From IMG/VR virus record IMGVR_UViG_3300006794_000002: 14,550 nt of DNA; one strand, written 5' to 3'. The notes below the pieces were generated by a model. It saw only the letters and a list, made by a program, of their open reading frames with translations. It was not told the DNA's origin and made no database searches. Origin of the DNA: a virus (Duplodnaviria > Heunggongvirae > Uroviricota > Caudoviricetes). Below, piece after piece: positions 2,132-14,550 of the stretch (within the stretch, counting starts at the first letter, position 1; every line of letters starts with the position of its first letter). The translations under genes were made by a program, and so were the position numbers.

Positions 2132-2450
2132 CTATTGTACCACTTTCATCCCCGTAATGTCCAACGTGTACTAGATCAGCGATCATCAATGCAAAATTAG
2201 CAACGTCGGCGCATTCATGAATGATTGCTTCTGCGTGGTCCCTGTTTGGGTAAAACGCATTGTCAATCATAGCCTTATTTAGTTCGTCAATCTCTTCCAT
2301 CATCCGCTCGTGCGCTCTGTTGATGGTGAACCCATCCTCACTACGCCAGAACGGTTTGTGATCGTTCACCACAAACTTGAACCGCATTCGATTAGTAAAC
2401 CAGTCGAGCGCCTGTTCTACTTGTGGCATATCACTTCTCAGATTTGACAT
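2118..2450 (-). CDS. MazG-like nucleoside triphosphate pyrophosphohydrolase (all-alpha NTP-PPase)
   Basis: Motifs MMEEIDELNKAM and IIHECADVANFALMIAD match the EExxE...ExxD metal-binding helices of the NTP-PPase superfamily. Start trimmed to ATG 2450 (2429 is also possible), because the track's longer start lies deep inside the upstream gene. Confidence 0.72.
   Translation of the reverse strand: MSNLRSDMPQVEQALDWFTNRMRFKFVVNDHKPFWRSEDGFTINRAHERMMEEIDELNKAMIDNAFYPNRDHAEAIIHECADVANFALMIADLVHVGHYGDESGTIDGEN
2134..2165 (-). promoter_or_regulatory. promoter P1 of the GTTGGACA / extended -10 class, inside the MazG-like gene
   Basis: Minus strand reads GTTGGACATTACGGGGATGAAAGTGGTACAAT: TGGACA (2163-2158), 18 bp spacer, TGG, TACAAT (2139-2134). 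Same layout as three other copies. Confidence 0.6.
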
Positions 2451-2640
2451 CTTCAACTTCTTTCTTGTAGACAGATGGGCCGTAGGTAGGCAGTGCCAAA
2501 TTGAGAAGAACATTCCTCTCAATTGGCACACCTAGGTCAATTTCGTACTCAGGATGCTCTTTCATCCAAACATCGAACACCCTGTTAGACATGAGTACCC
2601 AATAGTTAGGCTCAGTCCGGGTCTTCGTAGACTGAATCAA
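2431..2640 (-). CDS. hypothetical protein
   Basis: 69 aa from TTG 2640 (AAGGA about 9 nt upstream) or 53 aa from ATG 2592. Fills the gap between the helicase and MazG-like genes. Confidence 0.55.
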   Translation of the reverse strand: MIQSTKTRTEPNYWVLMSNRVFDVWMKEHPEYEIDLGVPIERNVLLNLALPTYGPSVYKKEVEDVKSEK

Positions 2641-3904
2641 CTTCTTCGATCCTTCCCGTATTTAGCGTTATCTCGGTGTCAAATTTCTTTAGCGCACCGT
2701 GTCGGTTTTTGGCAATATCAAAGTGCAGGATAGGCGACTGTTCCTTACGGTTGCGACGAAGCATCACTGCAACATCGGCTGAGTCACGGATATCTCCTGC
2801 ACCCTTGAAGGTGTAGAATTCTCCCTGTCCCTTTTCCTGAATGTCCTGATTAGCCATTGCGTTTGACACTTGCGAGAATGCAACAACCGTGCATTGAAGG
2901 TCTTTAGCGAGTTGGAGTGATTCGACCGCCACATCTCTAGCATCTCCATACACATCTCCGCTGATGCGGATGTTCTGAATGTAGTCAAGCACCACAACAT
3001 CAAGCCCTTCCTGATCGTGGATGCGATGCAGAAGGTTCTTGATCTTGGCCCACTTGTAGTAGGCGTCGAAGATAAACAACGGCGACTTTTCTAGTTTGCG
3101 TGTCGCAGCAGCAAGGTTCTCTTGATTTTCGATGCCACGAATGACACCGTTTCGAATGTCTTGCTGTGGTACGCCCGAAGATATAGAGAGCAGTCGAATC
3201 ATGTACTGCTCCTGCGTCATCTCAGTTGAGACAATCGCAACCTTCTTGCCACGTACAGCCAGAGCGTCAAGAACAATGTTGCAGCCTACCGCTGACTTAC
3301 CCGTTGAAGAGAAGCCACCGATAACCCACAGGTTTCCACGCTGAAGCCCACCAGTTATCTGCGAAAGAGTCGGAGCAAAGAGAAGAGGAATCGTGTCACT
3401 CGGTCCCGCAGACGTGATCCTACGGATGATGTCTTGTGGGCGGGGACTGCGCTCTGCTTCAGGGAGAATGTCGGAGACAGCACGTAGGGCACTTTCAGCG
3501 TCCACGATTGCAGACTCGTAATCGGATCGATGCTCTCGCCCGATTTCAATAATCCTAGCCCCTGCTCTAGTGATGTGTCTAGAGACAGCCAATCCTTTGA
3601 CGGTTGCGGCATAGCCAGAGGCTTGCTCGACAGAAGCAGGAAGGCTACTGAGTCCGGCAACGTATTCTCCGGTACTATCGTCACCGGCAAGCCGAAGTGC
3701 TTCAAGTACGTAGGGAAGTTCTGGTCGTTGTTTTTCGGCAACAGTTTCAAAAACCGCCTTGGCAACACGACGGTTCTCTGGTCCAAGGAAGTCATCTTTG
3801 GTAAGGCCGACATGATTGATGGCATAGAATTCCTCAGGGTATCGCAGCATCGCTGCTAGTACTAGCGCCTCTGCTTCGTTGTTGTAGAGCGCTTCACTAG
3901 TCAT
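2612..3904 (-). CDS. dnaB: replicative DNA helicase, DnaB family
   Basis: 430 aa. N-terminal NEAEALVLAAML, Walker A GGFSSTGKS, STEM, Walker B VVVLDYIQ, AFSQVS, FKGAGDIRDSADV and arginine-finger IAKNRHG. Confidence 0.93.
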   Translation of the reverse strand: MTSEALYNNEAEALVLAAMLRYPEEFYAINHVGLTKDDFLGPENRRVAKAVFETVAEKQRPELPYVLEALRLAGDDSTGEYVAGLSSLPASVEQASGYAATVKGLAVSRHITRAGARIIEIGREHRSDYESAIVDAESALRAVSDILPEAERSPRPQDIIRRITSAGPSDTIPLLFAPTLSQITGGLQRGNLWVIGGFSSTGKSAVGCNIVLDALAVRGKKVAIVSTEMTQEQYMIRLLSISSGVPQQDIRNGVIRGIENQENLAAATRKLEKSPLFIFDAYYKWAKIKNLLHRIHDQEGLDVVVLDYIQNIRISGDVYGDARDVAVESLQLAKDLQCTVVAFSQVSNAMANQDIQEKGQGEFYTFKGAGDIRDSADVAVMLRRNRKEQSPILHFDIAKNRHGALKKFDTEITLNTGRIEEVDSVYEDPD

Positions 3905-4677
3905 TCGGTCTGAACCCTATCTTGCGACTCTGCGGCTCCATATAGTCCACCAATGGTGTACTTACTATCTTCTCGGAGCCAGTTGTAAAGGTCAAGTGCT
4001 GATACGAAAGCATTGAACGATGCACTTCCGATAACACATCTTCTAAGTTCGTACCCTGCGGGGCTAAGATGGAGAACGTAGCCGCGTTCTGCGACAGGGA
4101 CTTCGGTTCGTTGTCCATCACGGACGGCAAACTCGCCTCTAGAATAAGCCGCCAGTTGTAGTCCAACTTCAGGCCAGATGCTACTTCCAGTTTTGATATC
4201 AATTACGCATACCTTTCCGTTGATAACGGCGTAGATGTCGGCGGTACCGGCATAGCCGTAGGTATCGTTGAATACAGTCAGTTCAGTTGCAACGTAGGTA
4301 GGCTGAACGTCGTATTGAAAAGCCTCATACGCAGCGATGTAGGGCGCAGCAGCCTCAGAAAAGACTGGCAGTTCTGCGTTGCTTGCCATTGCGTCAGCGT
4401 AGGCGTGAACCTCTTGGCCTAGATTGGCCTTAACGTCTTTCCCTTCGTCCGCAAGTCCAAGAACGAACTTGATCGCTTTCTCGCGGTCGAGTGCTGCAAA
4501 TTCTTCATGGCTATCGTAAGCCGATTGAGCCACAAGTTTAGCCATCCAGCGGGATAGCGCTGGCTTCGGAATACAGTATTTGAGTACCGTGGTGACAGAT
4601 GGATAACGCTTCTCGTCATACTCATAGAAGCGGTCCCCGCCATCCAGTGTTCTTAATCCTTTCACGGATATGGGCAT
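3901..4677 (-). CDS. PD-(D/E)XK exonuclease, phage type
   Basis: Motifs YPSVTTVL, LGQEVH, YAGTADI, VIDIKTG and QLAAY. Shine-Dalgarno AAGGA precedes ATG 4677. Its TGA overlaps the helicase ATG (ATGA). Confidence 0.85.
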   Translation of the reverse strand: MPISVKGLRTLDGGDRFYEYDEKRYPSVTTVLKYCIPKPALSRWMAKLVAQSAYDSHEEFAALDREKAIKFVLGLADEGKDVKANLGQEVHAYADAMASNAELPVFSEAAAPYIAAYEAFQYDVQPTYVATELTVFNDTYGYAGTADIYAVINGKVCVIDIKTGSSIWPEVGLQLAAYSRGEFAVRDGQRTEVPVAERGYVLHLSPAGYELRRCVIGSASFNAFVSALDLYNWLREDSKYTIGGLYGAAESQDRVQTE

Positions 4678-5203
4678 CAAGGTTCCTTATATCGTACACC
4701 GGCTTACCTGTGCGGATCGCATAGTCTATGCAGTTCTTAGTTCCGCCCGGTGTACCGTTGTAGTAACTGATAACGATGTCCGCGTTATCAACCATGTGTT
4801 GATTGCGCTCCTGAAAGCGCCATTTGTGACCGTTGTAAGGGATAGGTTTGCAGGACTCAGCCTGACAAAGCGAGATGAAATGCAACCACTCTTCCACTGG
4901 CTGTGCGCCATTAGGTCCGCTGTTCAGCGCCTTATGCAGCGCCTTCAATCGGTAGTCGAACGGAACGTGGATGGCCTCAACGCTGTTGAGCGAAGGCCAG
5001 ATTCGTTTTAGTACGTAGGTATCAAATCCGTCAGCACCGCCATTATGGAATACAACTGGTCGATCCCATCCTATGTCACGCAGAAAGTCCAAGCCGTCGT
5101 CTATGGCTGGCTCATCTTCAGGCTCTACCTCACGGTGGCCGGTGAATGCAATGCTAAGAAGCGGAGGCAGTTTATCCAAAGATGATCCGTCCCTTCTCGT
5201 CAT
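4622..5203 (-). CDS. SLOG superfamily protein, YspA-like
   Basis: Motifs IAFTGHR, HNGGADGFD and FQERNQHMVDNADIVISYYNGTPGGTKNCIDYA..GKPV are typical of YspA/DprA-related SLOG Rossmannoid domains. Start codon uncertain. Confidence 0.8.
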   Translation of the reverse strand: MTRRDGSSLDKLPPLLSIAFTGHREVEPEDEPAIDDGLDFLRDIGWDRPVVFHNGGADGFDTYVLKRIWPSLNSVEAIHVPFDYRLKALHKALNSGPNGAQPVEEWLHFISLCQAESCKPIPYNGHKWRFQERNQHMVDNADIVISYYNGTPGGTKNCIDYAIRTGKPVYDIRNLDAHIRERIKNTGWRGPLL

Positions 5204-5504
5204 ACTTCACTAGTGGGGCATCCACAATGTCGTCAGGCCAGTACGTATCGTACTCTTCAGGCTCTCCGCCGTAACCGCCGTACTTCTGGACAGACTGGTA
5301 ACGACTCTCGACTTCGTAGTTGATGCTGAGTTTTTCTGCCAGAATCTCTAGGGCATCATCCCACCCGTTGGAAATGCCAAGTGAACCGCGAAAGGGATCA
5401 TGAGAGTAGAAATCCCAAATAAGTTTGCCATCCAGATACAGGCCAGCGAAGTCATCAGGACTTACGGCCATAACCAGTCTACGCTTCTCCGGTGACTCGA
5501 TCAT
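5172..5504 (-). CDS. hypothetical protein
   Basis: 110 aa from ATG 5504 with GGAG about 10 nt upstream (ATG 5471 is also possible). Acidic and aromatic-rich; overlaps both neighbours. Confidence 0.65.
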   Translation of the reverse strand: MIESPEKRRLVMAVSPDDFAGLYLDGKLIWDFYSHDPFRGSLGISNGWDDALEILAEKLSINYEVESRYQSVQKYGGYGGEPEEYDTYWPDDIVDAPLVKYDEKGRIIFG

Positions 5505-5817
5505 CGTTGAGCAACTCCAATAGTACGTCTGCATGGCATGGGAGCGGAGAACACCAGCAAGCAAGTGCTGTTGCGTCTTTAAGTGGGCTTAGCCACTCCG
5601 GTTCCTTCTTGACACGTCTGATAGCATAGACCCTGAACATGTCGATCACGAACTGTCGGATCGAATCACGGTCTTTACCAACCTTGTCCGGTGGACAGGC
5701 GATTACGTCCTGTACTCTATAGGGGTTTCCCCAAGGGGAGGGGCGACCGACGTACACGCACCCTTCAGGTACTTTCCTGCCGATCTTCCTCATGTTTAGG
5801 ATGATTTTCGGTGTCAT
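5479..5817 (-). CDS. DUF4326 domain protein
   Basis: Motifs VYVGRPSPWGNPY and LACWCSPLPCHADVLLELLN are the family signature. ATG 5817 lies 7 nt after the -10 of promoter P2 and has no Shine-Dalgarno. Confidence 0.85.
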   Translation of the reverse strand: MTPKIILNMRKIGRKVPEGCVYVGRPSPWGNPYRVQDVIACPPDKVGKDRDSIRQFVIDMFRVYAIRRVKKEPEWLSPLKDATALACWCSPLPCHADVLLELLNDDRVTGEA

Positions 5818-5823
5818 CTGCAC

Positions 5824-5855
5824 AGTTTACCACACTGATGTCACGTTTGTCCAAC
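5824..5855 (-). promoter_or_regulatory. promoter P2, leftward, for the replication/nucleotide arm
   Basis: Minus strand reads GTTGGACAAACGTGACATCAGTGTGGTAAACT: TGGACA (5853-5848), 18 bp, TGG, TAAACT (5829-5824). Confidence 0.75.
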
Positions 5856-5866
5856 CTCAGTGTGGA

Positions 5867-5899
5867 GTATCAATGGATACTAATTGATATCCATGGACA
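5867..5899. repeat. operator-like imperfect palindromes between divergent promoters
   Basis: TATCAATGGATA (5868-5879) and TATCCATGGACA (5888-5899) match at 10/12, are 20 bp apart and are each near-palindromic. GTATCAAT (5867-5874) and ATTGATAT (5883-5890) form an interlocked inverted repeat. Confidence 0.55.
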
Positions 5900-5900
5900 T

Positions 5901-5932
5901 GTTGGACATCAAGGTATACAGTGTGTTAAGAT
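5901..5932 (+). promoter_or_regulatory. promoter P3, rightward, for the SSB-like gene
   Basis: GTTGGACATCAAGGTATACAGTGTGTTAAGAT: TGGACA (5903-5908), 18 bp, TGT, TAAGAT (5927-5932). Confidence 0.75.
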
Positions 5933-5951
5933 GCTCTAGACAACTGTAAAC

Positions 5952-6006
5952 ATGCTTCTACATTGAGATTTAACCCTTTATAGAAGCGTTCACTCTTTAA
6001 GGAGTG
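5952..6006 (+). promoter_or_regulatory. two leader hairpins, the second covering the SSB Shine-Dalgarno
   Basis: ATGCTTCTA (5952-5960) pairs with TAGAAGCGT (5981-5989). CACTCT (5991-5996) pairs with GGAGTG (6001-6006) around a TTAA loop and includes the GGAG. Confidence 0.45.
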
Positions 6007-6009
6007 TAA

Positions 6010-6564
6010 ATGCCAAGAGTACCCGGTGCCGATGAATACGGCCAAGGTGGTGGCGATTTCGGTACGCTAGAAAGCGACGAGTATCGCCTAAAGATTCTGT
6101 CATGGGAAGAGCATGAGCAACCCCTGAACCAGTACAACAAAGACCCGAATGCCAAGAGCATCTGGTTCAAACTGGAACCTCTTCACTACGAGCATGATCC
6201 TGAGGCCGAGTTGGTCGATAAGGACACGGGTGAGCCTATCTCACCTGACAAGACGCTCATCTTCTTCTACGATCCTAAGCGATTGGGCCTTGTGCCGCGT
6301 ATCGCTCGATCACGCATGTTCCTTGCAGCCGCTCTGAACGTGCCGGTCGAAGAGCCTATCGACTTCGATGGCTACGATGATCTGATTGGCAAGGAGATTG
6401 TTGGAAACGTCATTGTCAAGGACGGCAAGAACCGAATTGACTCCGTAAGGCCCGTTAAGCAGCGTGCTAAGCGTTCTACCACGAAGGAAGCGCCAGCGGT
6501 TAAGGCTGCTAAGGAGGTCTTCGGGGAAGACGCCAACGAGCCTGAGGATGACACCGACTACTAG
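6010..6564 (+). CDS. single-stranded DNA-binding protein-like (DUF669-type phage SSB)
   Basis: 184 aa with Shine-Dalgarno TAAGGAG. Has FGTLESDEYRLKI, DLIGKEIVGNVIVK..NRIDSV, then a flexible linker and an acidic tail ending in an aromatic residue (EPEDDTDY), which is typical of SSBs. Lies next to the primase. Confidence 0.65.
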   Translation: MPRVPGADEYGQGGGDFGTLESDEYRLKILSWEEHEQPLNQYNKDPNAKSIWFKLEPLHYEHDPEAELVDKDTGEPISPDKTLIFFYDPKRLGLVPRIARSRMFLAAALNVPVEEPIDFDGYDDLIGKEIVGNVIVKDGKNRIDSVRPVKQRAKRSTTKEAPAVKAAKEVFGEDANEPEDDTDY

Positions 6565-6596
6565 GTTGGACATCCTCTTGACCAACGTGGTATAAT
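6565..6596 (+). promoter_or_regulatory. promoter P4, rightward, for the primase operon
   Basis: GTTGGACATCCTCTTGACCAACGTGGTATAAT starts immediately after the SSB stop codon: TGGACA (6567-6572), 18 bp, TGG, perfect TATAAT (6591-6596). Confidence 0.8.
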
Positions 6597-6601
6597 TGAA
6601 T

Positions 6602-6678
6602 GAGAGGCGGGCCGTTGTTCGCATCAATTCACTTTATGTTGTTCTTGGTTGACAGGGACAGCGGCCCTAACCTCTTCT
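6602..6678 (+). ncRNA. structured RNA leader (long interrupted hairpin) at the predicted P4 transcription start
   Basis: Three nested stems: 6602-6607/6671-6676, 6609-6620/6656-6667 (12 bp) and 6624-6629/6647-6652. They contain five G-U pairs that work only on the plus strand. Confidence 0.55.
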
Positions 6679-6703
6679 CAACACATTAAGAAAGGAAACT
6701 TCA

Positions 6704-6883
6704 GTGCAGGAATCTGATAAACTAAAGGCAATCGCCGTGTTCATGGGTATGCTGATGGTCATGACTTCCGTCAAGGGCGTAAGCATGATGACCAACGAGC
6801 AGAAGGACAAGGCTGCTGTTGAGGCACTCGATACCTTTGAGGCATTCATCGGCGCTATGGGATTCAAGATCGTCGCCAAGTAG
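6704..6883 (+). CDS. 59 aa Met-rich small protein with hydrophobic N-terminal segment
   Basis: Not in the ORF track. Strong AAAGGA then GTG 6704: MQESDKLKAIAVFMGMLMVMTSVKGVSMMTNEQKDKAAVEALDTFEAFIGAMGFKIVAK. Its TAG overlaps the primase GTG by 1 nt. Confidence 0.75.
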   Translation: MQESDKLKAIAVFMGMLMVMTSVKGVSMMTNEQKDKAAVEALDTFEAFIGAMGFKIVAK

Positions 6884-7761
6884 TGTATGAACTACAGGGT
6901 CAGATCGAAGAACTACTCGGACAGAATAGCCGTGGAAGTGGAGTTAACGGGATGTTCCTGTGTCCCTTCCACGATGAGCGCACGCCCTCGTTTAGCATTC
7001 ACCTTAACGAAGGACTCTGGTACTGTTTCGGATGTAGTCGAAAAGGGAACTTGGAAGGTCTTTACCGACAACTCGGAGAAGAGTTAACCGATGAGCAAAG
7101 ACACGATCTTCTCATCGCCTCTGTCTATCGAGAACCCGAAGAGCGAAAGAACTTCGCAGCACTCGCCAATTCTCATCGACGTGCATTTAAGGAGCCAGCA
7201 GGACAAAACCTCTGGCAGTCTTTCATTCGAAGCCGACCTATCCGACGAGACGCAGATGTTCATTTCGGAGTGGGTTACTCAGATGAAAAGGGCGCACTCA
7301 CCTTCCCTTACTGGAACGATGATGGTACAGTTACCGCTATCAAATACCGTTTTAGAGATGGAAGCAAGACTAGTGAGAGTGGCTCAAAGAGAAGCATCTA
7401 CAACGTCACTGATATTGTTGGAAGACCAGTAATCCTGCTATGTGAGGGTGAAAGTGATACGATGGCTGCGTGGTCGAAACTTACGGGGCCAGAAGTGGCG
7501 GTCTGTGGTTCTCCCGGTGCCGGGGTGTCCGAACGGACATGGGCTAATTGGGGTCTTGACTTCCTTTTCGCCCGACGTATCTACGTTGCGTTTGACGCTG
7601 ATGAGGCGGGAGATGCTGGTAGCACAACTGCCATGCAAGTGTTGGGTGCTGACAAATGTATCCGAATCCGACCGACTCGCGGTGGAGACTTATCCGAACA
7701 CATAACGGAAGGGGGAACTCTTGCCGAACTTGGAGTGGCAGAAGCGCACGATAACGTTTGA
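6883..7761 (+). CDS. dnaG: DNA primase, DnaG type (CHC2 zinc finger plus TOPRIM)
   Basis: Zinc finger CPFHDERTPSF...WYCFGC, TOPRIM LLCEGESD and YVAFDADEAGD, and GGDLSE. No C-terminal helicase-binding domain. Confidence 0.9.
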   Translation: MYELQGQIEELLGQNSRGSGVNGMFLCPFHDERTPSFSIHLNEGLWYCFGCSRKGNLEGLYRQLGEELTDEQRHDLLIASVYREPEERKNFAALANSHRRAFKEPAGQNLWQSFIRSRPIRRDADVHFGVGYSDEKGALTFPYWNDDGTVTAIKYRFRDGSKTSESGSKRSIYNVTDIVGRPVILLCEGESDTMAAWSKLTGPEVAVCGSPGAGVSERTWANWGLDFLFARRIYVAFDADEAGDAGSTTAMQVLGADKCIRIRPTRGGDLSEHITEGGTLAELGVAEAHDNV

Positions 7762-8077
7762 ACAACTACGATTTCTAGCACCGCTTCATGACTATCAAAC
7801 TTCCATGGTGACATGGTTAAAAGTAATCGGGGCAATCCCCAAAGACGTGGAGTGGAAACGTGGAAATAGGCATCCTAATACGAACCTCAAACCTGATGCC
7901 ATACCAGCGGGATATCTCGCTGAGGTCGCACATGATTGGGATACAGAGGGCAGAACTACACCGAGAGAGTTTGTGGACGCGCTGGCTTTCGAAATCGCGG
8001 GCACGCGGGAACGCAATTCGGTAATCGCTCTGTACGACGAGATGATGTTCGACAACATGGCTTGGGCCAACTCGTAG
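7721..8077 (+). CDS. hypothetical protein
   Basis: 118 aa, TTG start with a G-rich Shine-Dalgarno; overlaps the end of the primase gene. Confidence 0.6.
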   Translation: MPNLEWQKRTITFEQLRFLAPLHDYQTSMVTWLKVIGAIPKDVEWKRGNRHPNTNLKPDAIPAGYLAEVAHDWDTEGRTTPREFVDALAFEIAGTRERNSVIALYDEMMFDNMAWANS

Positions 8078-8093
8078 GAGAAATGGTCCGAAG

Positions 8094-8450
8094 ATGATGA
8101 CAGTGGTCCGTGAGAACGGAAACAGACCAACACTAACAACTCCCGCCCGCCTGAACGCCGATGCTGGCGCGAAGGTGCTGGCGGATTTAATGGCTCCCCA
8201 CGACTTCGCTGATTTGTGTGCTATCACACTTGATTGGGAAGGCGACGGGTTTACACCTGTGATGGTTATCGATACGATCAAATGGTTCCCGCACTTTAAC
8301 GGGCGTTCGCTATCGACACATCAAGTAATATCGATTGACGACGCTTTTGGCATGGATAACTATGACAATGCACTAGCCCGTCAGATAGTTTATGACCTGA
8401 GGGAAGAGTTTGAGCGTATGTCTCAGACGACCCCACCGGGTTGGAGTTAA
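8094..8450 (+). CDS. hypothetical protein
   Basis: 118 aa with AGGAG upstream; in the operon direction. Confidence 0.7.
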   Translation: MMTVVRENGNRPTLTTPARLNADAGAKVLADLMAPHDFADLCAITLDWEGDGFTPVMVIDTIKWFPHFNGRSLSTHQVISIDDAFGMDNYDNALARQIVYDLREEFERMSQTTPPGWS

Positions 8451-8451
8451 A

Positions 8452-8805
8452 ATGGACGGTATGATTCTTGGTAGAAACACTCAGCAATGGATGGGTGTGA
8501 TTACCGCAACAGTCGGATTCGTCGGCGTGATAATTGGGGTAGCATTTCCCATGGTCGTCGGTCCAGCCACCATCATCCTTAACGGATTGACTGGTGTTCT
8601 TGGAGTGTGGGTTGCGTTCCTTGCGAACACGGCTACGACTCCTATCAAGTCACCGCAACTTCAGGTTGGTACGGTCGTTTCCGCTACTGATCCGAACACT
8701 GGTGTCGTTGTTGGTCACGTTAAGGTTCCTGAGCCTACACCCGCGCCTTTGGCAGAGGATGTGGGTCCGCAGGAAGACGATGTTGACGGCGACGGAGTAG
8801 CGTAA
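8452..8805 (+). CDS. two-transmembrane protein, holin-like
   Basis: 117 aa from ATG 8452 (GGAG 5 nt upstream). Hydrophobic segments WMGVITATVGFVGVIIGVAFPMVV and ATIILNGLTGVLGVWVAFLA, then a Pro/acidic tail. The membrane protein call is solid; the holin call is tentative. Confidence 0.55.
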   Translation: MDGMILGRNTQQWMGVITATVGFVGVIIGVAFPMVVGPATIILNGLTGVLGVWVAFLANTATTPIKSPQLQVGTVVSATDPNTGVVVGHVKVPEPTPAPLAEDVGPQEDDVDGDGVA

Positions 8806-9182
8806 TGCCTAAGCAGCGCATCTACTCCGTTCACCAGCGCTCAGTCGCCCAAGGCATTAGCCTAGAGAGGGAGTTAGGTGTTTTCACAGACGACGCAATG
8901 GCGAATCAGGCTATCGATCATCTATATCGCTATGCTTGGGGCGATATCATTGCTTCTACTGCTAGCGTCGTGTGGTTTGACCCCGGCCTTCGCGCTGACA
9001 TTATGAGAAAAGGCTTCGATGTTTGGGCTGTTGATGATAAAAACAGTGACAACCCAATCTTCTTCAAGAGGCCGCATGATCTTTGGAATCAGGTACCGCC
9101 TAGCGCTGAAGACTTTAAGTTTCGGCAGGAAAGCGTAGACCTAGGCGTTATAGCGCCTGTAGAAGTTAAGAGGCCGTTCTAA
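8805..9182 (+). CDS. hypothetical protein
   Basis: 125 aa, TAATG-coupled at both ends. Confidence 0.75.
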   Translation: MPKQRIYSVHQRSVAQGISLERELGVFTDDAMANQAIDHLYRYAWGDIIASTASVVWFDPGLRADIMRKGFDVWAVDDKNSDNPIFFKRPHDLWNQVPPSAEDFKFRQESVDLGVIAPVEVKRPF

Positions 9183-9409
9183 TGCAAGAACTGTTTAGAG
9201 GTTTCGTTGAACTCAACTATGAGGGCGGCGTACAGAGAGTCGAAATCTACAAAGATGAAGACCACATCTACGCTTACGTGGACGAGAACCTAGCCGATGA
9301 TGTTGAGAACGCTGAAGAATTCAAGGACAGTTATGGCCTGAAGTTGTACAGCACAATCGAAGACTTCAAACGTGGCAACTCGATCAGTGTTGACAAGGTT
9401 TGGGTCTAA
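9182..9409 (+). CDS. hypothetical protein
   Basis: 75 aa, acidic, TAATG-coupled at both ends. Confidence 0.75.
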   Translation: MQELFRGFVELNYEGGVQRVEIYKDEDHIYAYVDENLADDVENAEEFKDSYGLKLYSTIEDFKRGNSISVDKVWV

Positions 9410-9495
9410 TGGGTAATCGTGACGATTGCGACCGCTGCAATAACCGAGGCACCTTCTATGGATGCCGGAAGTGCGGTCGCGTCATGGAGAAGTAA
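9409..9495 (+). CDS. 28 aa CxxC/CxxC zinc-binding microprotein
   Basis: Not in the ORF track. MGNRDDCDRCNNRGTFYGCRKCGRVMEK; TAATG-coupled upstream, and its TAA directly abuts the next ATG. Confidence 0.7.
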   Translation: MGNRDDCDRCNNRGTFYGCRKCGRVMEK

Positions 9496-9768
9496 ATGTT
9501 TGAACCAGCAAAGTGTCCAGACTGTGGCGTTTGGTGGCGCGGATTTGAGCATAGGTGCGCTCCGCTCGTAACCACTACTGGCACTAACCCTACAGTCGGC
9601 GGCTTTTGCCCGACCTGTGGCAAGTGGTATGATGGCGCTCACTTCTGCCCCGGTCCAGACTCTAGGCCGATCAAATGGACGATAAGCAATAACGGTGGTA
9701 GCAGCACCGTAAGTCCATGCCCTGATTGCAGTATGCCGGATGGGTGGCACTCTTGCGGAAGATGCTAG
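9496..9768 (+). CDS. Cys/His-rich protein with three repeated zinc-knuckle-like units
   Basis: 90 aa: CPDCGVWWRGFEHRC, CPTCGKWYDGAHFC and CPDCSMPDGWHSC, joined by Thr/Gly/Ser linkers. GGAG upstream. Confidence 0.75.
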   Translation: MFEPAKCPDCGVWWRGFEHRCAPLVTTTGTNPTVGGFCPTCGKWYDGAHFCPGPDSRPIKWTISNNGGSSTVSPCPDCSMPDGWHSCGRC

Positions 9769-9769
9769 A

Positions 9770-10378
9770 ATGGGAAGTATCGGTCTATCAATGATCGTAA
9801 GAGACGAACCGGCTGACCGCTTGGCAATGCTTGTCGAGTATGTCAAGCCGGTTGTTTCGCAAGTAGTAATCGCAGACACAGGAAGCGCAGTAGATGAAAC
9901 GGAACTATACAAAACTTGGGGTGTTGACGCTTTTAAGTTTGATTGGGTTGATGATTTTGCTGCTGCTAGGAATTCCACTCTCGATCATTTCGATGTGGGG
10001 ATTGACTGGATACTACATCTTGACGCGGACGAACTTCCTTCGTGGACTATGGTCGAACACCTTAGATGGATCAAAGACCACGCTCCCAAGAAGGTCAAGG
10101 GATATCAGTTCTGGACACAGAACTTTTGGGGCGGTATCGTTGGCGGAGAAGCGCCGTATCATTGGCATTGTCGGCTCTTCCGCAGAGGTCACGGTCGTTG
10201 GTACAAGAAAGTCCACGAGCAAGTCGAAATTGACGGCCTCCGAGAAGAGCAAGCGCATTCTAAAGGCTGGCTTGTCCATGCTGCAAAGGAAGCGTACCTA
10301 ATTCATAGCAAGCCACAGGAGACGATGGATCGTGCCAACGAGGTCTACTCGCGGATTGGTGAAGGTCCACGACAGTAA
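9770..10378 (+). CDS. glycosyltransferase family 2 (GT-A fold)
   Basis: Motifs LSMIVRDE, VVIADTGS, WVDDFAAARN, DWILHLDADE and RLFRR...VHEQ. Start trimmed to ATG 9770, 1 nt after the upstream stop. Confidence 0.88.
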   Translation: MGSIGLSMIVRDEPADRLAMLVEYVKPVVSQVVIADTGSAVDETELYKTWGVDAFKFDWVDDFAAARNSTLDHFDVGIDWILHLDADELPSWTMVEHLRWIKDHAPKKVKGYQFWTQNFWGGIVGGEAPYHWHCRLFRRGHGRWYKKVHEQVEIDGLREEQAHSKGWLVHAAKEAYLIHSKPQETMDRANEVYSRIGEGPRQ

Positions 10379-10397
10379 GTGGAGTCAGGAGAGAAAC

Positions 10398-10931
10398 ATG
10401 GACTACATCTACGAGTACTACGCTGAAATGAATAAGCAGTACCCACTGCGAAAGCAACCAGCGCAGACTCCACTCTCCGACTGGTACGCCGGTAAACTCT
10501 TCACGAAGGTTACAGCCTACTGTGCTGAAGAGGTTCGTCGGCAAGGTGATACACCGTGGCACGTCCAGCGAATGCTAGAGGCGTGGGAGTACGCTCTTCG
10601 TAAGTCGTTCTACAAACCTACCAAGAAGGACATCCTTGAAATTGGTAGGCTGATGGACGAACTGAACGAGAACGGCTTTCGTCAGTACCCAATCTCTGTT
10701 GGTGGCGAGACTCGCCCGTTTGAGACAATCGAACGTGCGATCACCAATTGGGAATCGGCTGTTGAAGAGGGTCGGCTTACGCCAGAAGAGGCGTACCTAG
10801 AGTTTGAAAAGATTCATCCTTTCGGGGACGGAAACGGTCGGACTGGCAAGGTGCTGTATAACTGGCTGAGCAAGACCCTTCTCGATCCAATCTGGCCCCC
10901 GGATTTCTTCGGAGGCATAGAGAACCCGTGA
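10398..10931 (+). CDS. Fic domain protein
   Basis: Motif FEKIHPFGDGNGRTGK matches HxFx(D/E)GNGRxxR with the last Arg replaced by Lys. Shine-Dalgarno AGGAG precedes ATG 10398. Confidence 0.88.
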   Translation: MDYIYEYYAEMNKQYPLRKQPAQTPLSDWYAGKLFTKVTAYCAEEVRRQGDTPWHVQRMLEAWEYALRKSFYKPTKKDILEIGRLMDELNENGFRQYPISVGGETRPFETIERAITNWESAVEEGRLTPEEAYLEFEKIHPFGDGNGRTGKVLYNWLSKTLLDPIWPPDFFGGIENP

Positions 10932-11611
10932 ACATAGCCTTGATCTGCCCCTCTCGCGGACGCCCTGACGAAGCCAGAGCAATGATGGGAAGTGCATTCT
11001 CTTCTAGTTCTGGCAACGTCAGGGTTTTCTTTATCGTTGATGTAGACGACCCTGAACTAGACAGGTATCCTGAGGCTGACAAGATTGTACTCGATCCGCC
11101 GCCAGCCAACATGGTTGAAGCAACAAATCGAGGACTACGTGCAATCAACACAGCCTACGGCGAATACGATATCTATGGATTCGTTGGAGACGATGTTCGG
11201 TTTAGAACCTTTGGATGGGATGATGCTGTACGAAAGGCTCTTGGCCCGCATAGAGGAATTGCGTATGCCAACGATGGCCTACAGGGAGAGAATCTCGCAA
11301 CGCATTGGTTTGTCTCCGGAGCAATTGTTAAGCGCGTGGGCCTTACTCCTAGTCCTACCAATCACTTCTATCAGGACAATGCTTGGACGGACGTAGGAAA
11401 AGAGATAGGTATTCTTCACTACATGCCGGACGTAGAGATAGAACATCTTCACTTCTCCGCAAAGAAATCAACCTATGACGAAACATACCGTAAGAGTGAT
11501 GAACGCTTCTGGAAGAGCGGAGTTGACTCTGAACTATGGAATAAATGGCGCTACTCTCCTGCTTGGGATAAGTTTGTAGAGCGCGTCAGGAGCAGTTTAT
11601 GGCGGGAATAA
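10928..11611 (+). CDS. glycosyltransferase (GT-A-like, phage type), paralog 1
   Basis: Motifs LICPSRGRP, IVDVDDP, GFVGDDVRFRTFGWD, FYQDNAW and PDVEIEHLH. GTGA overlap with the Fic gene. Confidence 0.78.
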   Translation: MNIALICPSRGRPDEARAMMGSAFSSSSGNVRVFFIVDVDDPELDRYPEADKIVLDPPPANMVEATNRGLRAINTAYGEYDIYGFVGDDVRFRTFGWDDAVRKALGPHRGIAYANDGLQGENLATHWFVSGAIVKRVGLTPSPTNHFYQDNAWTDVGKEIGILHYMPDVEIEHLHFSAKKSTYDETYRKSDERFWKSGVDSELWNKWRYSPAWDKFVERVRSSLWRE

Positions 11612-12306
11612 CTACTCTTATGCCGACACGCGGCAGACCTGAGCGGGCGCTAGAGGCTATCAATAGCCACAACAGCACCAAGACTCTTGAAGACACGGCC
11701 ATAGTTGCGGTGTTAGATAACAATGATCCGAGGTTTATGGACTACATAAAACTCGACTCGCCTACTACAGAAGTGATTGTTTCCACGGGCGGAATGGTGC
11801 AGCGTAGCAACGATGCCGCTCTGAAACTAGTTAACAGATTTGACGGACCATCTATAATTGGATGGACGGCAGACGACCAACTCTTCAGGACGGACGGGTG
11901 GGACCACCGCATCAAGGGTGCATTTCTGAATCCTTCTGTTGGCTTTGTAATGACCAACGACCTTCACTACGGTGAGGTTAAGGCTGTCAATATCTACACC
12001 CGCGCAGAGATTGTTAAGGCTCTAGGCTGGTTCTTGCTACCAACGTTGGAACACCTTTATGTTGACGATGCATGGGTAAGGCTAGGCAGAGAGTCAGGGT
12101 CGCTAGAATACCTAGAAGATGTAGTAGTAGAGCATATGCATCCCGTGTACGGCAAGGCAGAGGATGACGCTCAGTATGCAGAACTGCATACGTCAGAAAA
12201 GTACAAGAAGGACGGCGCAGCATATGACAATTGGCTGTTCCACTACTTGGACGGAGATGTGGACACGGTAAAGGAATGTCTTCGACGCCTTGGAAAACAG
12301 GACTAA
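11599..12306 (+). CDS. glycosyltransferase (GT-A-like, phage type), paralog 2
   Basis: Motifs LMPTRGRP, VLDNNDP, GWTADDQLFRTDGWD, LYVDDAW and EDVVVEHMH, colinear with paralog 1. Confidence 0.78.
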   Translation: MAGITTLMPTRGRPERALEAINSHNSTKTLEDTAIVAVLDNNDPRFMDYIKLDSPTTEVIVSTGGMVQRSNDAALKLVNRFDGPSIIGWTADDQLFRTDGWDHRIKGAFLNPSVGFVMTNDLHYGEVKAVNIYTRAEIVKALGWFLLPTLEHLYVDDAWVRLGRESGSLEYLEDVVVEHMHPVYGKAEDDAQYAELHTSEKYKKDGAAYDNWLFHYLDGDVDTVKECLRRLGKQD

Positions 12307-12719
12307 CAATCGGGACGTTCGACATCCCTCACATGGGCCATGTGGCGCTACTACAGCGGGCACAGCGGCTTGTTAATCTGTTCCTATACGTAGGGGTTAA
12401 CTCCGACGAATTCGTAGAGCAGTATAAGGGTAAGCGACCCATCTTCACCTTGGCCGAGAGGCGTTCGGCACTAGAAAAAATGGAAAAGATTGCCACGGTC
12501 GTCAATGATGGACCGGGCAGGGACTTGATCTATAGGATCAGACCTAGCGTTCTCATCATCGGTAGTGACTGGCTTGGCCGGGACTACCTAAAGCAAATCG
12601 ATATGACTGTCGATGATTTCGACCGTCTAGGCACAAGTTTAGTGTACTTACCGTACACTGAAGGAATTTCTACCACTGAACTCAAAAGGAGAATCGGTGA
12701 ACAAGAGTCAACAGCATAG
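12276..12719 (+). CDS. cytidylyltransferase-like nucleotidyltransferase (TagD/Gct type, HxGH)
   Basis: Motifs GTFDIPHMGH, VGVNSDEFV..YKGKRP, ERRSAL, IGSDW and YLPYTEGISTTELK. Start trimmed to ATG 12276. Substrate not established. Confidence 0.88.
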   Translation: MSSTPWKTGLTIGTFDIPHMGHVALLQRAQRLVNLFLYVGVNSDEFVEQYKGKRPIFTLAERRSALEKMEKIATVVNDGPGRDLIYRIRPSVLIIGSDWLGRDYLKQIDMTVDDFDRLGTSLVYLPYTEGISTTELKRRIGEQESTA

Positions 12720-13104
12720 GTACGGCATGAAGAACGGCCACTCTCCCGATGCAAAGGGAGTCGTGTGTGTTGACTTCGATGGTACAATAGTTCCATGGGG
12801 ACCACTCATGAACTCCCAAGCCGAGGCGCTTCCGGGCGCTCGTGAGGCCATCAAAGCCATGAAGAAGGCCGGATGGAAAATCCTGATCTATACTTCAAGG
12901 CTCTCTCCGTCGTGGCACGCCGCCTCAGGAGAGAAGTACGAAGTGCAATTACAATACGTAGTTGACACTCTTGTTCGGCTAAAGATTCCCTTCGATGGCG
13001 TGACTGCGGAAAAGGTTCCGGCAGAAGCGTACATCGATGACAGAGCAATCGAATTCACAGGAAACAACTGGAACGAAATAGCAGAAAGGATGCTAGGTAA
13101 GTGA
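12697..13104 (+). CDS. HAD-superfamily phosphatase
   Basis: Motif I VDFDGTI, motif II IYTSR, motif III/IV K.PAEAYIDDRAI. Shine-Dalgarno AAGGAG 5 nt before the GTG. Confidence 0.85.
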   Translation: MNKSQQHRYGMKNGHSPDAKGVVCVDFDGTIVPWGPLMNSQAEALPGAREAIKAMKKAGWKILIYTSRLSPSWHAASGEKYEVQLQYVVDTLVRLKIPFDGVTAEKVPAEAYIDDRAIEFTGNNWNEIAERMLGK

Positions 13105-13283
13105 TCTTATCATCGGTTATCTTGGGCGTAGCCAACATCGCCATGGGGCTGCTCAACTACGGTCTAGCAAGGCTGAATTGGGAAATGGGTAACACGGGCA
13201 TGACTGTGTTTGGTGTCGTTGTAGGCACTGCCGCTCTGCTCCTTGGCCTCTTCGTAACCGGCCATGGATTTGGTCTGTTCTAA
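13101..13283 (+). CDS. small membrane protein (two hydrophobic segments)
   Basis: 60 aa, almost entirely hydrophobic; GTGA overlap with the HAD gene. Confidence 0.7.
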   Translation: MILSSVILGVANIAMGLLNYGLARLNWEMGNTGMTVFGVVVGTAALLLGLFVTGHGFGLF

Positions 13284-13295
13284 GAAAGGAACACA

Positions 13296-13532
13296 ATGAA
13301 AAAGGCTAATCTAGTTAATCTTGCAAAAGAGATGGTTCCGGACTTCACCGGAAACGGGCTGGCATACCCGACCTTTCTGACTGGCCTAGAGTCAGGGTTG
13401 CTTCTTTCAGAGAAGCGACCAGACGTGGCAGCACAGATACTCGACGTGTTCCGTAACGGAGACTACTACGTTAACGGCAACTCAATGATGGAAGACGTAG
13501 ATGATGTTGTCGAGGCGTTAGGCGTTGCGTAA
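13296..13532 (+). CDS. hypothetical protein
   Basis: 78 aa with a strong AAAGGA Shine-Dalgarno. Confidence 0.75.
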   Translation: MKKANLVNLAKEMVPDFTGNGLAYPTFLTGLESGLLLSEKRPDVAAQILDVFRNGDYYVNGNSMMEDVDDVVEALGVA

Positions 13533-14112
13533 CGTCGCGCTCTTCGGTCAGATGTATGCCGGTAAATCTACTATCGCTGACGCGCTAGGAGAAGCCGGTT
13601 ATCACAGGATGTCCTTTGCAGGACCGTTGAAGAACGTAGCGGCCCTAGCCTACGGTACCATCGACAAGACCGGCGAGTACGAAACGATGAGTCCGTGGGA
13701 AGACGCCAAGATCGTCACGCCCGCTTACTCCACTTCGACAAAATCAGGTAGGCAAATCCTACAGGAAGTTGGTCAAGCCATGAAAATGGTAGATCGAGAC
13801 TTCTGGCTGAAGTGTTTCTTCCGAGACGCTAAGAACTACCTTGACACACCCCTTACAGTGGATGATGGACGATTCCTCTTCGAATTCGACGCACTGAGGT
13901 CACAGGGCTGGCTCTCCGTTGGCATCCTGACTCCGGATACAGTGCGTTGGCAGCGAGCAATCTCCCTTAACGGAAGAGAGCCTACGCCAGCGGAGAAGAA
14001 TCATCCATCTGAAACTGAGATTCCGTCAATCCTCGCTAAGTGTGACTTAGTGGTTGACGGCACTACTGATCCTTACGCGAACGCTAAGAGGATACTGGAT
14101 GTCGCACGCTAA
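13525..14112 (+). CDS. deoxynucleoside monophosphate kinase (phage dNMP kinase family)
   Basis: P-loop GQMYAGKST, SFAGPLK, RQILQEVGQ, DFWLK, VDDGRFLFE and HPSET. Confidence 0.88.
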   Translation: MRNVALFGQMYAGKSTIADALGEAGYHRMSFAGPLKNVAALAYGTIDKTGEYETMSPWEDAKIVTPAYSTSTKSGRQILQEVGQAMKMVDRDFWLKCFFRDAKNYLDTPLTVDDGRFLFEFDALRSQGWLSVGILTPDTVRWQRAISLNGREPTPAEKNHPSETEIPSILAKCDLVVDGTTDPYANAKRILDVAR

Positions 14113-14314
14113 CGAAGCGGACTATCGATGTCCGCGATGCAACTGGACGGTTCGTGCTGGAATCCCTCACGAATGCAATTTTCAGATTTGTCACAAGTGT
14201 AACGGCAAGGGAACAATTGGCTGGCGAGAACACGAAACTTGTGACTGGTGCAACGGTGATGGCCTCTGGCACGACCGTCCAGAAGAAGATAAGGGAGCGT
14301 TAGTTCCCGCATAA
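14099..14314 (+). CDS. zinc-finger protein: CPxC...HxC knuckle plus DnaJ-type CxxCxGxG pair
   Basis: 71 aa from ATG 14099 (AGAGGA 6 nt upstream): CPRC...HEC, CHKCNGKG and CDWCNGDG. Confidence 0.72.
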   Translation: MSHANEADYRCPRCNWTVRAGIPHECNFQICHKCNGKGTIGWREHETCDWCNGDGLWHDRPEEDKGALVPA

Positions 14315-14327
14315 GGAGAACCATACG

Positions 14328-14550
14328 GTGAAACGAGACGGATGGGGGGCTTCTGTAACGGGAACCTTCAACTACCTTAGATTCGCAGCAGTACTAATCC
14401 TAGCAGGAGCGCTAACGATTATCGCTTATGGCGCGGTGCGCGGAGCAACTTCTGTCTGCGGCGACCAACGATCAGAGACACGACCGCCAACCCACATCAG
14501 GGTATACATCGGGAGTCAGGACAGAGTTGTTGACGTACCATTTAAGTTGT
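14328..14550 (+). CDS. membrane-anchored or secreted protein, partial (runs off the right edge)
   Basis: Not in the ORF track. TAAGGAG then GTG 14328, open to the edge: MKRDGWGASVTGTFNYLRFAAVLILAGALTIIAYGAVRGATSVCGDQRSETRPPTHIRVYIGSQDRVVDVPFKL. Confidence 0.7.
   Translation, partial: MKRDGWGASVTGTFNYLRFAAVLILAGALTIIAYGAVRGATSVCGDQRSETRPPTHIRVYIGSQDRVVDVPFKL

Follow-up and report, generated by a model that had tools for sequence, protein, structure and literature searches.

Repeated -35/extended -10 sites at the replication units of an uncultured tailed phage are probably promoters for the host primary sigma factor

We analyzed a 14,550-nt stretch of tailed-phage DNA (hereafter the window) from IMG/VR record IMGVR_UViG_3300006794_000002, in which one promoter-like motif recurs: the 8-mer GTTGGACA, comprising the hexamer TGGACA, followed by a spacer ending in GTG(G/T) and a TAnnnT -10 box. 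On a 78,511-bp IMG/VR contig (G000; 51% GC, 71% complete according to CheckV), the window spans positions 49720-64269, read as the reverse strand, and it holds the replication module of the phage, arranged in two divergent arms. Encoded on the leftward arm are, in order, a DUF4326 protein (E = 2.9e-17), an unknown protein, a GTPase-like protein, an exonuclease, a DnaB helicase, a MazG-like protein, two unknowns, a small open reading frame (ORF) and a clamp-like protein, while the rightward genes include a single-strand DNA-binding protein (SSB)-like gene, a small ORF, a DnaG-type primase, unknowns, glycosyltransferases and Fic. The sites bearing the motif, called class I here and numbered P1 to P5, are probably ordinary strong -35/extended -10 promoters that are read by the host primary sigma factor and form one temporal class. 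Coordinates of these sites, and of a second, short-spacer class of promoter-like sites (class II), are collected in Table 1.

Within the window, the pattern GTTGGACA-N14-GTG(G/T)-TAnnnT matched four times, compared to 0.00 in the 200 dinucleotide-preserving shuffles used as window controls. The 8-mer alone likewise occurs four times (0.51 expected), each time with GTG(G/T)-TAnnnT at the same distance. These are the sites reported by a first-pass annotation made from the sequence letters without database searches, and their positions, their -10 boxes and the CAGTGTG(G/T)TAA common to P2 and P3 are all as it described. Scanning the whole of G000 revealed a fifth exact copy, P5 (+ strand), and a position-weight-matrix scan added one near copy, GTTGGACG...GTGC-TAAACT. 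A clear score gap sets these six sites (22.7-31.1 bits) apart from the next site on the contig (12.0 bits) and from the best of 20 shuffled genomes (19.1 bits). Every GTTGGACA on G000 has a -10 box at equal distance, and TGGAC precedes TGnTAnnnT at six sites, all with N16 and none at other spacings. The TAnnnT box is present in all five exact copies, in the near copy and in all homologues; GTG(G/T) precedes it in all copies, with TGTG, the TRTGn form, in three of the five. TGGACA matches TTGACA at five of six positions, 18 bp from the -10, and both P4 (11/12) and P1 (10/12) were among the top matches of a generic sigma-70 scan.

Four of the five exact copies (P2, P3, P4 and P5) stand at unit heads. 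The three of them that lie in the window bear out the earlier remark on three operon heads: P2 and P3 diverge from the gap (5824-6009) that separates the two arms, and P4 follows gene 6010-6564, beginning one base past its stop codon. P1 is internal, co-oriented with the genes, and occupies the last 30 nt of the MazG-like gene. P3 precedes the SSB-like gene (6010-6564, 184 amino acids), P4 heads the primase operon, and P5 lies directly upstream of a Y-RNA array, with the Ro60/TROVE gene at G000 9507-11111 (+); in the relatives, genes for ribonucleotide reductase (RNR) and ThyX come after Ro60. Because all copies head replication or nucleotide-metabolism units, the co-regulation proposed by the first-pass annotation is plausible, and only its attribution to a particular sigma factor or a phage activator is left unsupported by the comparisons below.

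To place the motif in a comparative context, relatives were found among metagenomic contigs via the SSB-like protein (18 relatives; 13 loci in JGI metagenomes). No near-identical phage was found in GenBank, and relatives were returned neither by a DnaB search of IMG/VR nor by an SSB-like alignment search of IMG/VR and GTDB genomes. The motif stands at homologous places in these relatives: at both divergent promoters in L106, at all of P1-P4 in L104, whose SSB-like protein is only 44% identical, at P1 in L102, L103 and L104, and at P4 in L109 and L110. Spacers and flanks are unrelated, both among copies and among phages, and the P2 homologues of L106 and L104 have different spacers. At P1, the C-terminal peptides of the overlapped genes are not homologous between phages, and one of them is read in a different frame; despite this, GTTGGAC and GTG-TA...T hold their register, which argues that selection acts on the DNA signal. 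The sites form a discrete, conserved set, and the original view of them as promoters with an extended -10 is supported. Exact matches to the motif were also found on 96 IMG/VR contigs, always singly and never several on one contig, and were judged to be at about chance level; nothing useful on the raw motif was found in the literature searched.

At two sites, the spacing downstream of the -10 box is as expected of a real start. At P2, 6 nt separate the -10 from the ATG of the DUF4326 gene, and the window, L106 and L104 all have this N6-ATG arrangement; the window and L106 also share the N-terminus MTPKI, while the six nucleotides ahead of it differ. With its ATG this close to the -10, P2 is predicted to produce a leaderless mRNA. 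At P5 of both G000 and L127, six variable nucleotides lie between the -10 and CTTCGATGCGAAG, a conserved sequence of the first Y RNA. P3 has a predicted leader of ~71 nt with the Shine-Dalgarno sequence AAGGAG, and P4 a structured one of ~100 nt with a Shine-Dalgarno site; by prediction, only P2 of the five copies is leaderless. A -10 box adjoining the ORF marks leaderless genes in Deinococcus-Thermus and in Streptomyces/Actinobacteria (PMC12340547; PMC4895711), and mapped transcript 5' ends of a Thermus phage lie 6 nt past TANNNT (bioRxiv 10.64898/2026.04.20.719267). P2 and its homologues share the N6-ATG geometry with the leaderless promoters of these two bacterial groups (PMC4895711; PMC12340547), whereas P3 and P4 differ from them in having long leaders with Shine-Dalgarno sites.

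Aligning the homologues at the -10 box identifies the nature of the upstream hexamer. At P3, the box reads GTTGGACA in L106 and L104, GTTTGACG in L102/L108, and TTGACA at 17 or 18 bp in L105, L113 and L115-L119. More specifically, TTGACA stands at 18 bp in L105, TTGACA or TTGACC at 18 bp in L113 and L119, and TTGACA at 17 bp in L115-L118, there with TGnTATAAT-like boxes. P3 and P2 of L102/L108 and P5 of L127 read GTTTGACG or GTTTGATG, that is TTGACG or TTGATG, and a single difference, at the second hexamer base, distinguishes GTTGGAC from GTTTGAC. Because relatives carry TTGACA-type hexamers at the same position, TGGACA is best described as a five-of-six version of TTGACA that would serve the same function. 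The L102-type phage has GTTGGACA exactly at P1 and again at P4 (with a 17-bp spacer and no TGn), and the T form (GTTTGAC or GTTTGAT) at P2, P3 and P5, the last on L127, a contig of the same sample as L102 that may or may not belong to the same genome. With both spellings in the L102-type phage, one polymerase must read both.

The first-pass annotation had taken the invariant, non-consensus -35 box and its 18-bp spacer to suggest a particular host sigma or a phage activator. This is not supported: relatives exchange TTGACA, TTGACG and TTGATG at this position, and on the 71%-complete G000 no match was found to sigma regions 2 and 4 (PF04542, PF04545 or PF08281), to MotA (PF09114) or to AsiA (PF09010). 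A search of G000 for T7-type RNA polymerase (PF00940) also returned no match and is uninformative, since its control search matched nowhere. With 18 bp between it and the -10, the box itself is placed like a normal -35, whereas a MotA-type box would be 11-13 bp away.

We propose a mechanism that draws on textbook sigma-70 contacts. TGGACA would be the -35 hexamer bound by sigma region 4; the 18-bp spacer, ending in (T)GTGn, would provide a TRTGn/TGn extended -10 bound by region 3; and TAnnnT would be the -10 bound by region 2, with a predicted start ~7 nt past it. The reader would be host RNA polymerase carrying its primary (group 1, sigma-70/SigA-type) sigma factor. The G replacing the second T of TTGACA would then be a lineage-specific spelling tolerated by the same polymerase, and a change of GTTGGACA to GTTTGACA would be expected to preserve activity. 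In this scheme the leftward helicase arm would be transcribed from P2 into a leaderless mRNA; P3 would drive the SSB-like gene, P4 would drive the primase operon, and P5 would serve the Y RNAs, Ro60 and RNR, while P1 would act as an internal booster ahead of the clamp-like gene. Heading units of replication and nucleotide metabolism, the five would behave as one temporal class. For the replication module of this uncultured, tRNA-rich phage, the result is a comparatively supported promoter map; its predictions are the start sites, a first gene without a leader, and a coherent regulon for replication and nucleotide metabolism. An 'odd' -35 box can be merely a tolerated spelling, which is helpful for annotation, if not surprising.

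The spacer of P4 also holds a TTGAC located 7 bp from the -10, making P4 a hybrid rather than a pure class I site, and this short-spacer arrangement defines class II. TTGAC-N5-TGnTAnnnT has 13 exact sites in G000 (0.12 expected) and TTGAC-N8-TAnnnT has 26 (2.15 expected), with no other spacing from 0 to 14 being used; the density of class II is 16.6 per 100 kb in G000 compared to 0.6 in 821 kb of unrelated IMG/VR contigs. TRTGn, present in the long-spacer promoters, is not found in class II. All seven P4 homologues (window, L102, L103, L104, L106, L109 and L110) have TTGAC-N5-TGnTAnnnT, and this TTGAC box is kept more faithfully than the -35 box, which is lost in L106 and degenerate in L103. 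The placement of class II sites is promoter-like: one ends 6 nt before the first tRNA of a 33-gene array and one 11 nt before tRNA-Gly, and one in the early control region has the N6-ATG geometry of a leaderless gene, as does a site in L105. Judging from a crude gene map, 11 of the 13 sites are co-oriented with local genes. No sense-direction site of either class occurs in the structural (late) module (G000 ~19900-46100, +), where the two class II matches (26621 and 37130) are antisense, so a third signal must exist for the late genes.

Beyond this phage group, class II stayed at control level in 401 sampled Actinomycetota genomes (a sample including the unpublished G023, which has a single match and on which no claim rests), and Streptomyces phage Samisti12, with only two matches in 134 kb, is not enriched. 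The P4 hybrid pattern, with its 19 fixed bases, matched no GTDB genome; its one IMG/VR match (L124) was taken as chance, as it is without the final T of the -10 and stands in a 168-kb record enriched in neither class. We also considered the class II TTGAC as the -35 of an overlapping promoter with a second -10 box 17 bp on, and rejected this because no conserved hexamer is present there. In a normal holoenzyme, sigma regions 2 and 4 cannot reach both boxes across a spacer of 7 bp, and we know of no named promoter architecture that class II fits. The long and short registers lie 11 bp apart, close to one turn of the helix, and P4 carries both. In a scheme that we consider fairly unlikely, T(T/G)GAC would be used in two rigid registers relative to a TGn-TAnnnT -10; given the unbridgeable spacer and the lack of enrichment in the 401 actinobacterial genomes, the short one would be read by a phage factor or by a polymerase with a repositioned sigma region 4, and the G spelling would prevent cross-talk between the classes. 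If real, class II would point to a hitherto undescribed means of steering RNA polymerase; it heads the tRNA array and early genes, has no counterpart as a class in the cellular genomes sampled, may matter more than class I and merits its own follow-up.

The host is probably an actinomycete, on a case that is suggestive but weak. The best available clue is the phage Ro60 protein, which is 51-54% identical over >90% of its length to chromosomal TROVE proteins; its named matches are all from actinomycetes (Streptomyces, Nonomuraea, Actinomadura, Thermocatellispora, Cryptosporangium and Marinactinospora). For the portal protein, 52 of 61 weak matches are to actinophages, including roughly 130-kb Streptomyces phages. 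In comparisons with cultured phages of many phyla, identities of DnaB and TerL do not exceed 27.5%, and no cultured relative is close. Leaderless starts and 18-bp spacers are compatible with an actinomycete host as well.

Several observations weigh against reading the class I sites as ordinary promoters for the primary sigma factor. The five copies do not differ anywhere in the 8-mer, not even at its two bases beyond the hexamer, and spelling tends to be uniform within a genome (all G in G000, L104 and L106); both exceed the known needs of sigma region 4 alone. A phage sigma or activator could also sit in the part missing from the 71%-complete contig. At P1, the ATG of gene 1817-2131 is only 2 nt past the -10, so a P1 transcript cannot encode this gene from its start, and we infer that P1 is an internal promoter for genes further down. 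Furthermore, T(T/G)GAC-N16-TGnTAnnnT had 0 matches in 21 Streptomyces genomes (G002-G022), compared to 18 and 60 for reversed controls, in a scan validated on G000. The suggestion that the motif could serve as a clue to the host failed on this result. The chromosomes scanned seem to avoid promoters that combine a near-consensus -35 with an extended -10, and the class I promoter style is not typical of the chromosome of this candidate host.

Invariance and uniform spelling would be expected if GTTGGACA were the docking site of a phage activator or of a remodelled or alternative sigma factor, akin to sigma appropriation, defining a middle class poorly read by the host holoenzyme alone. On G000, TTGAC is absent at 17-18 bp and used solely 7 bp from the -10, as though one box were being kept separate from the other, and with a structural module devoid of either class in sense, a phage-directed change of polymerase specificity probably exists. 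An activator is nevertheless unlikely to be what distinguishes class I, given that relatives have TTGACA or TTGACG at the same position, that one phage mixes the spellings, that the box occupies the normal -35 place and that no sigma, MotA or AsiA homologue was found. It is very unlikely that the sites are instead bound by a repressor, as operators or 'stoperators', and are not promoters: P1 and the near copy do lie within genes, and TGGACAT-like repeats and palindromes occur between P2 and P3, but every copy is locked at 18 bp to TGn-TAnnnT in the direction of the downstream genes, an ATG or RNA starts 6 nt downstream, and the lack of conservation in the spacers leaves no extended or symmetric site. 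We find it hardly credible that the copies are recent duplications of a single mobile promoter cassette whose individual elements are unselected. The identity of the 8-mer throughout and the similar -10 regions of P2 and P3 could be explained in this way; however, neither spacers nor flanks are related among the copies, no shared flanks or stem-loop of the PeSL-like kind accompany them, and the same sites occur in a phage whose SSB-like protein has diverged to 44% identity.

As predicted promoters for a host primary sigma factor, the class I sites have the features of sigma-70/SigA-type promoters, such as the strong early promoters of phages and the SigA promoters of actinobacteria: a -35 one base from TTGACA, a 17-18 bp spacer, TGn and TAnnnT, placement at operon heads and repetition of near-consensus copies through the phage genome. 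They differ in that, in this phage, the second hexamer base is always G and the upstream GT is fixed. In T4, the MotA box lies at about -30 and replaces the -35. Like class I, MotA/AsiA middle promoters pair a good -10 with an upstream box peculiar to the phage, and the box marks out replication genes as a temporal class; in contrast, the box described here stands at the normal -35 and interchanges with TTGACA, and G000 yielded no MotA/AsiA homologue. Mycobacterial RNA polymerase was measured to perform best when the spacer is 18 bp long, and with this enzyme TGN can mask the -35; mycobacteriophage L5 Pleft combines TTGACA with an 18-bp spacer (PMC1616969). For class II, the nearest parallel we noted is the late promoters of Thermus phage Lalka27a, which have a TAGGGT -10 and an invariant C at -25 and for which the authors infer a phage factor (bioRxiv 10.64898/2026.04.20.719267). 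Both have a -10 and a conserved element near -25 without a -35, but class II has TTGAC at -25 to -21 with TGn where Lalka27a has a single C with TAGGGT, and the likeness is a resemblance only.

Table 1. Class I and class II sites and associated features. Coordinates are those of the window unless G000 is given.
Feature	Coordinates	Strand	Details
Leftward arm, predicted to be served by P2 and P1	100..5817	-	Pfam and PHROG matches
Rightward arm, predicted to be served by P3 and P4, then class II sites	6010..14549	+	Pfam and PHROG matches
P1, class I promoter	2134..2165	-	-10 TACAAT; within 3' end of MazG-like gene 2118-2531
P2, class I promoter	5824..5855	-	GTTGGACA, 14-nt variable stretch, GTGG, -10 TAAACT; exact match
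ATG of DUF4326 gene	5815..5817	-	6 nt after P2 -10
P3, class I promoter	5901..5932	+	-10 TAAGAT
P4, hybrid promoter	6565..6596	+	GTTGGACA at -35; TTGAC 6578-6582, 7 bp from -10; TGG-TATAAT
Class II site in P4	6578-6596	+	TTGAC-N5-TGnTAnnnT
P5, class I promoter	G000 8982-9013		fifth exact copy
Near copy of class I motif	G000 11682-11713	+	GTTGGACG...GTGC-TAAACT
Class II site	12770..12788	+	TTGAC-N5-TGG-TACAAT, between gene end 12719 and gene start 12808
Class II site, predicted	5609..5627	+	TTGACA-N4-TGA-TAGCAT; 300 nt upstream of P3, same direction, within opposite-strand DUF4326 gene
Class II-like site without TG	11840..11858	+	TTGAC-N8-TATAAT; weaker support
Class II sites	G000 7200-7218, 15008-15026, 15164-15182, 15243-15261, 16870-16888	+	TTGAC(A)-N4/5-TGnTAnnnT
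Class II sites	G000 26621, 37130, 51482, 57674, 58643 (these three being the exact window sites listed above), 68204, 72542, 76970	-	TTGAC(A)-N4/5-TGnTAnnnT

The 184-amino-acid protein encoded at 6010-6564 (+) matched no Pfam or PHROG family. It has an acidic tail with a terminal aromatic residue (EDDTDY), its gene adjoins the primase gene, and it may be a single-strand DNA-binding protein similar to gp2.5 of T7. Between P2 and P3 (5861-5900) lie AATTGATATCC and TATCCATGGA-type repeats, and another control region (G000 7405-7430) has the palindrome ACATTGATATCAATGT immediately after an extended -10; these repeats and the palindrome may share one regulator. The P4 leader (6597-6703, +) has conserved blocks in its homologues of L102, L103, L104 and L106, of which GTTCGCATCAATTCAC is common to the window and L106; an Rfam scan of the window gave no match, in this leader or elsewhere.

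Three or four class II-like sites are stacked in 430 bp just upstream of the tRNA array (G000 14831-15261, +), within and at the end of a gene that reads as thymidine-kinase-like from its sequence rather than from a family match. The near copy of the class I motif lies within the gene for a class II ribonucleotide reductase, over its conserved LDDWHP(D/N)V motif, and the homologous place in L128 (5211-5240) reads TTGACG-N14-GTGA-TAGACT. In both, the TA of the -10 is supplied by CTA or ATA codons, which are usually rare, and the near copy is possibly an internal promoter kept through codon choice.

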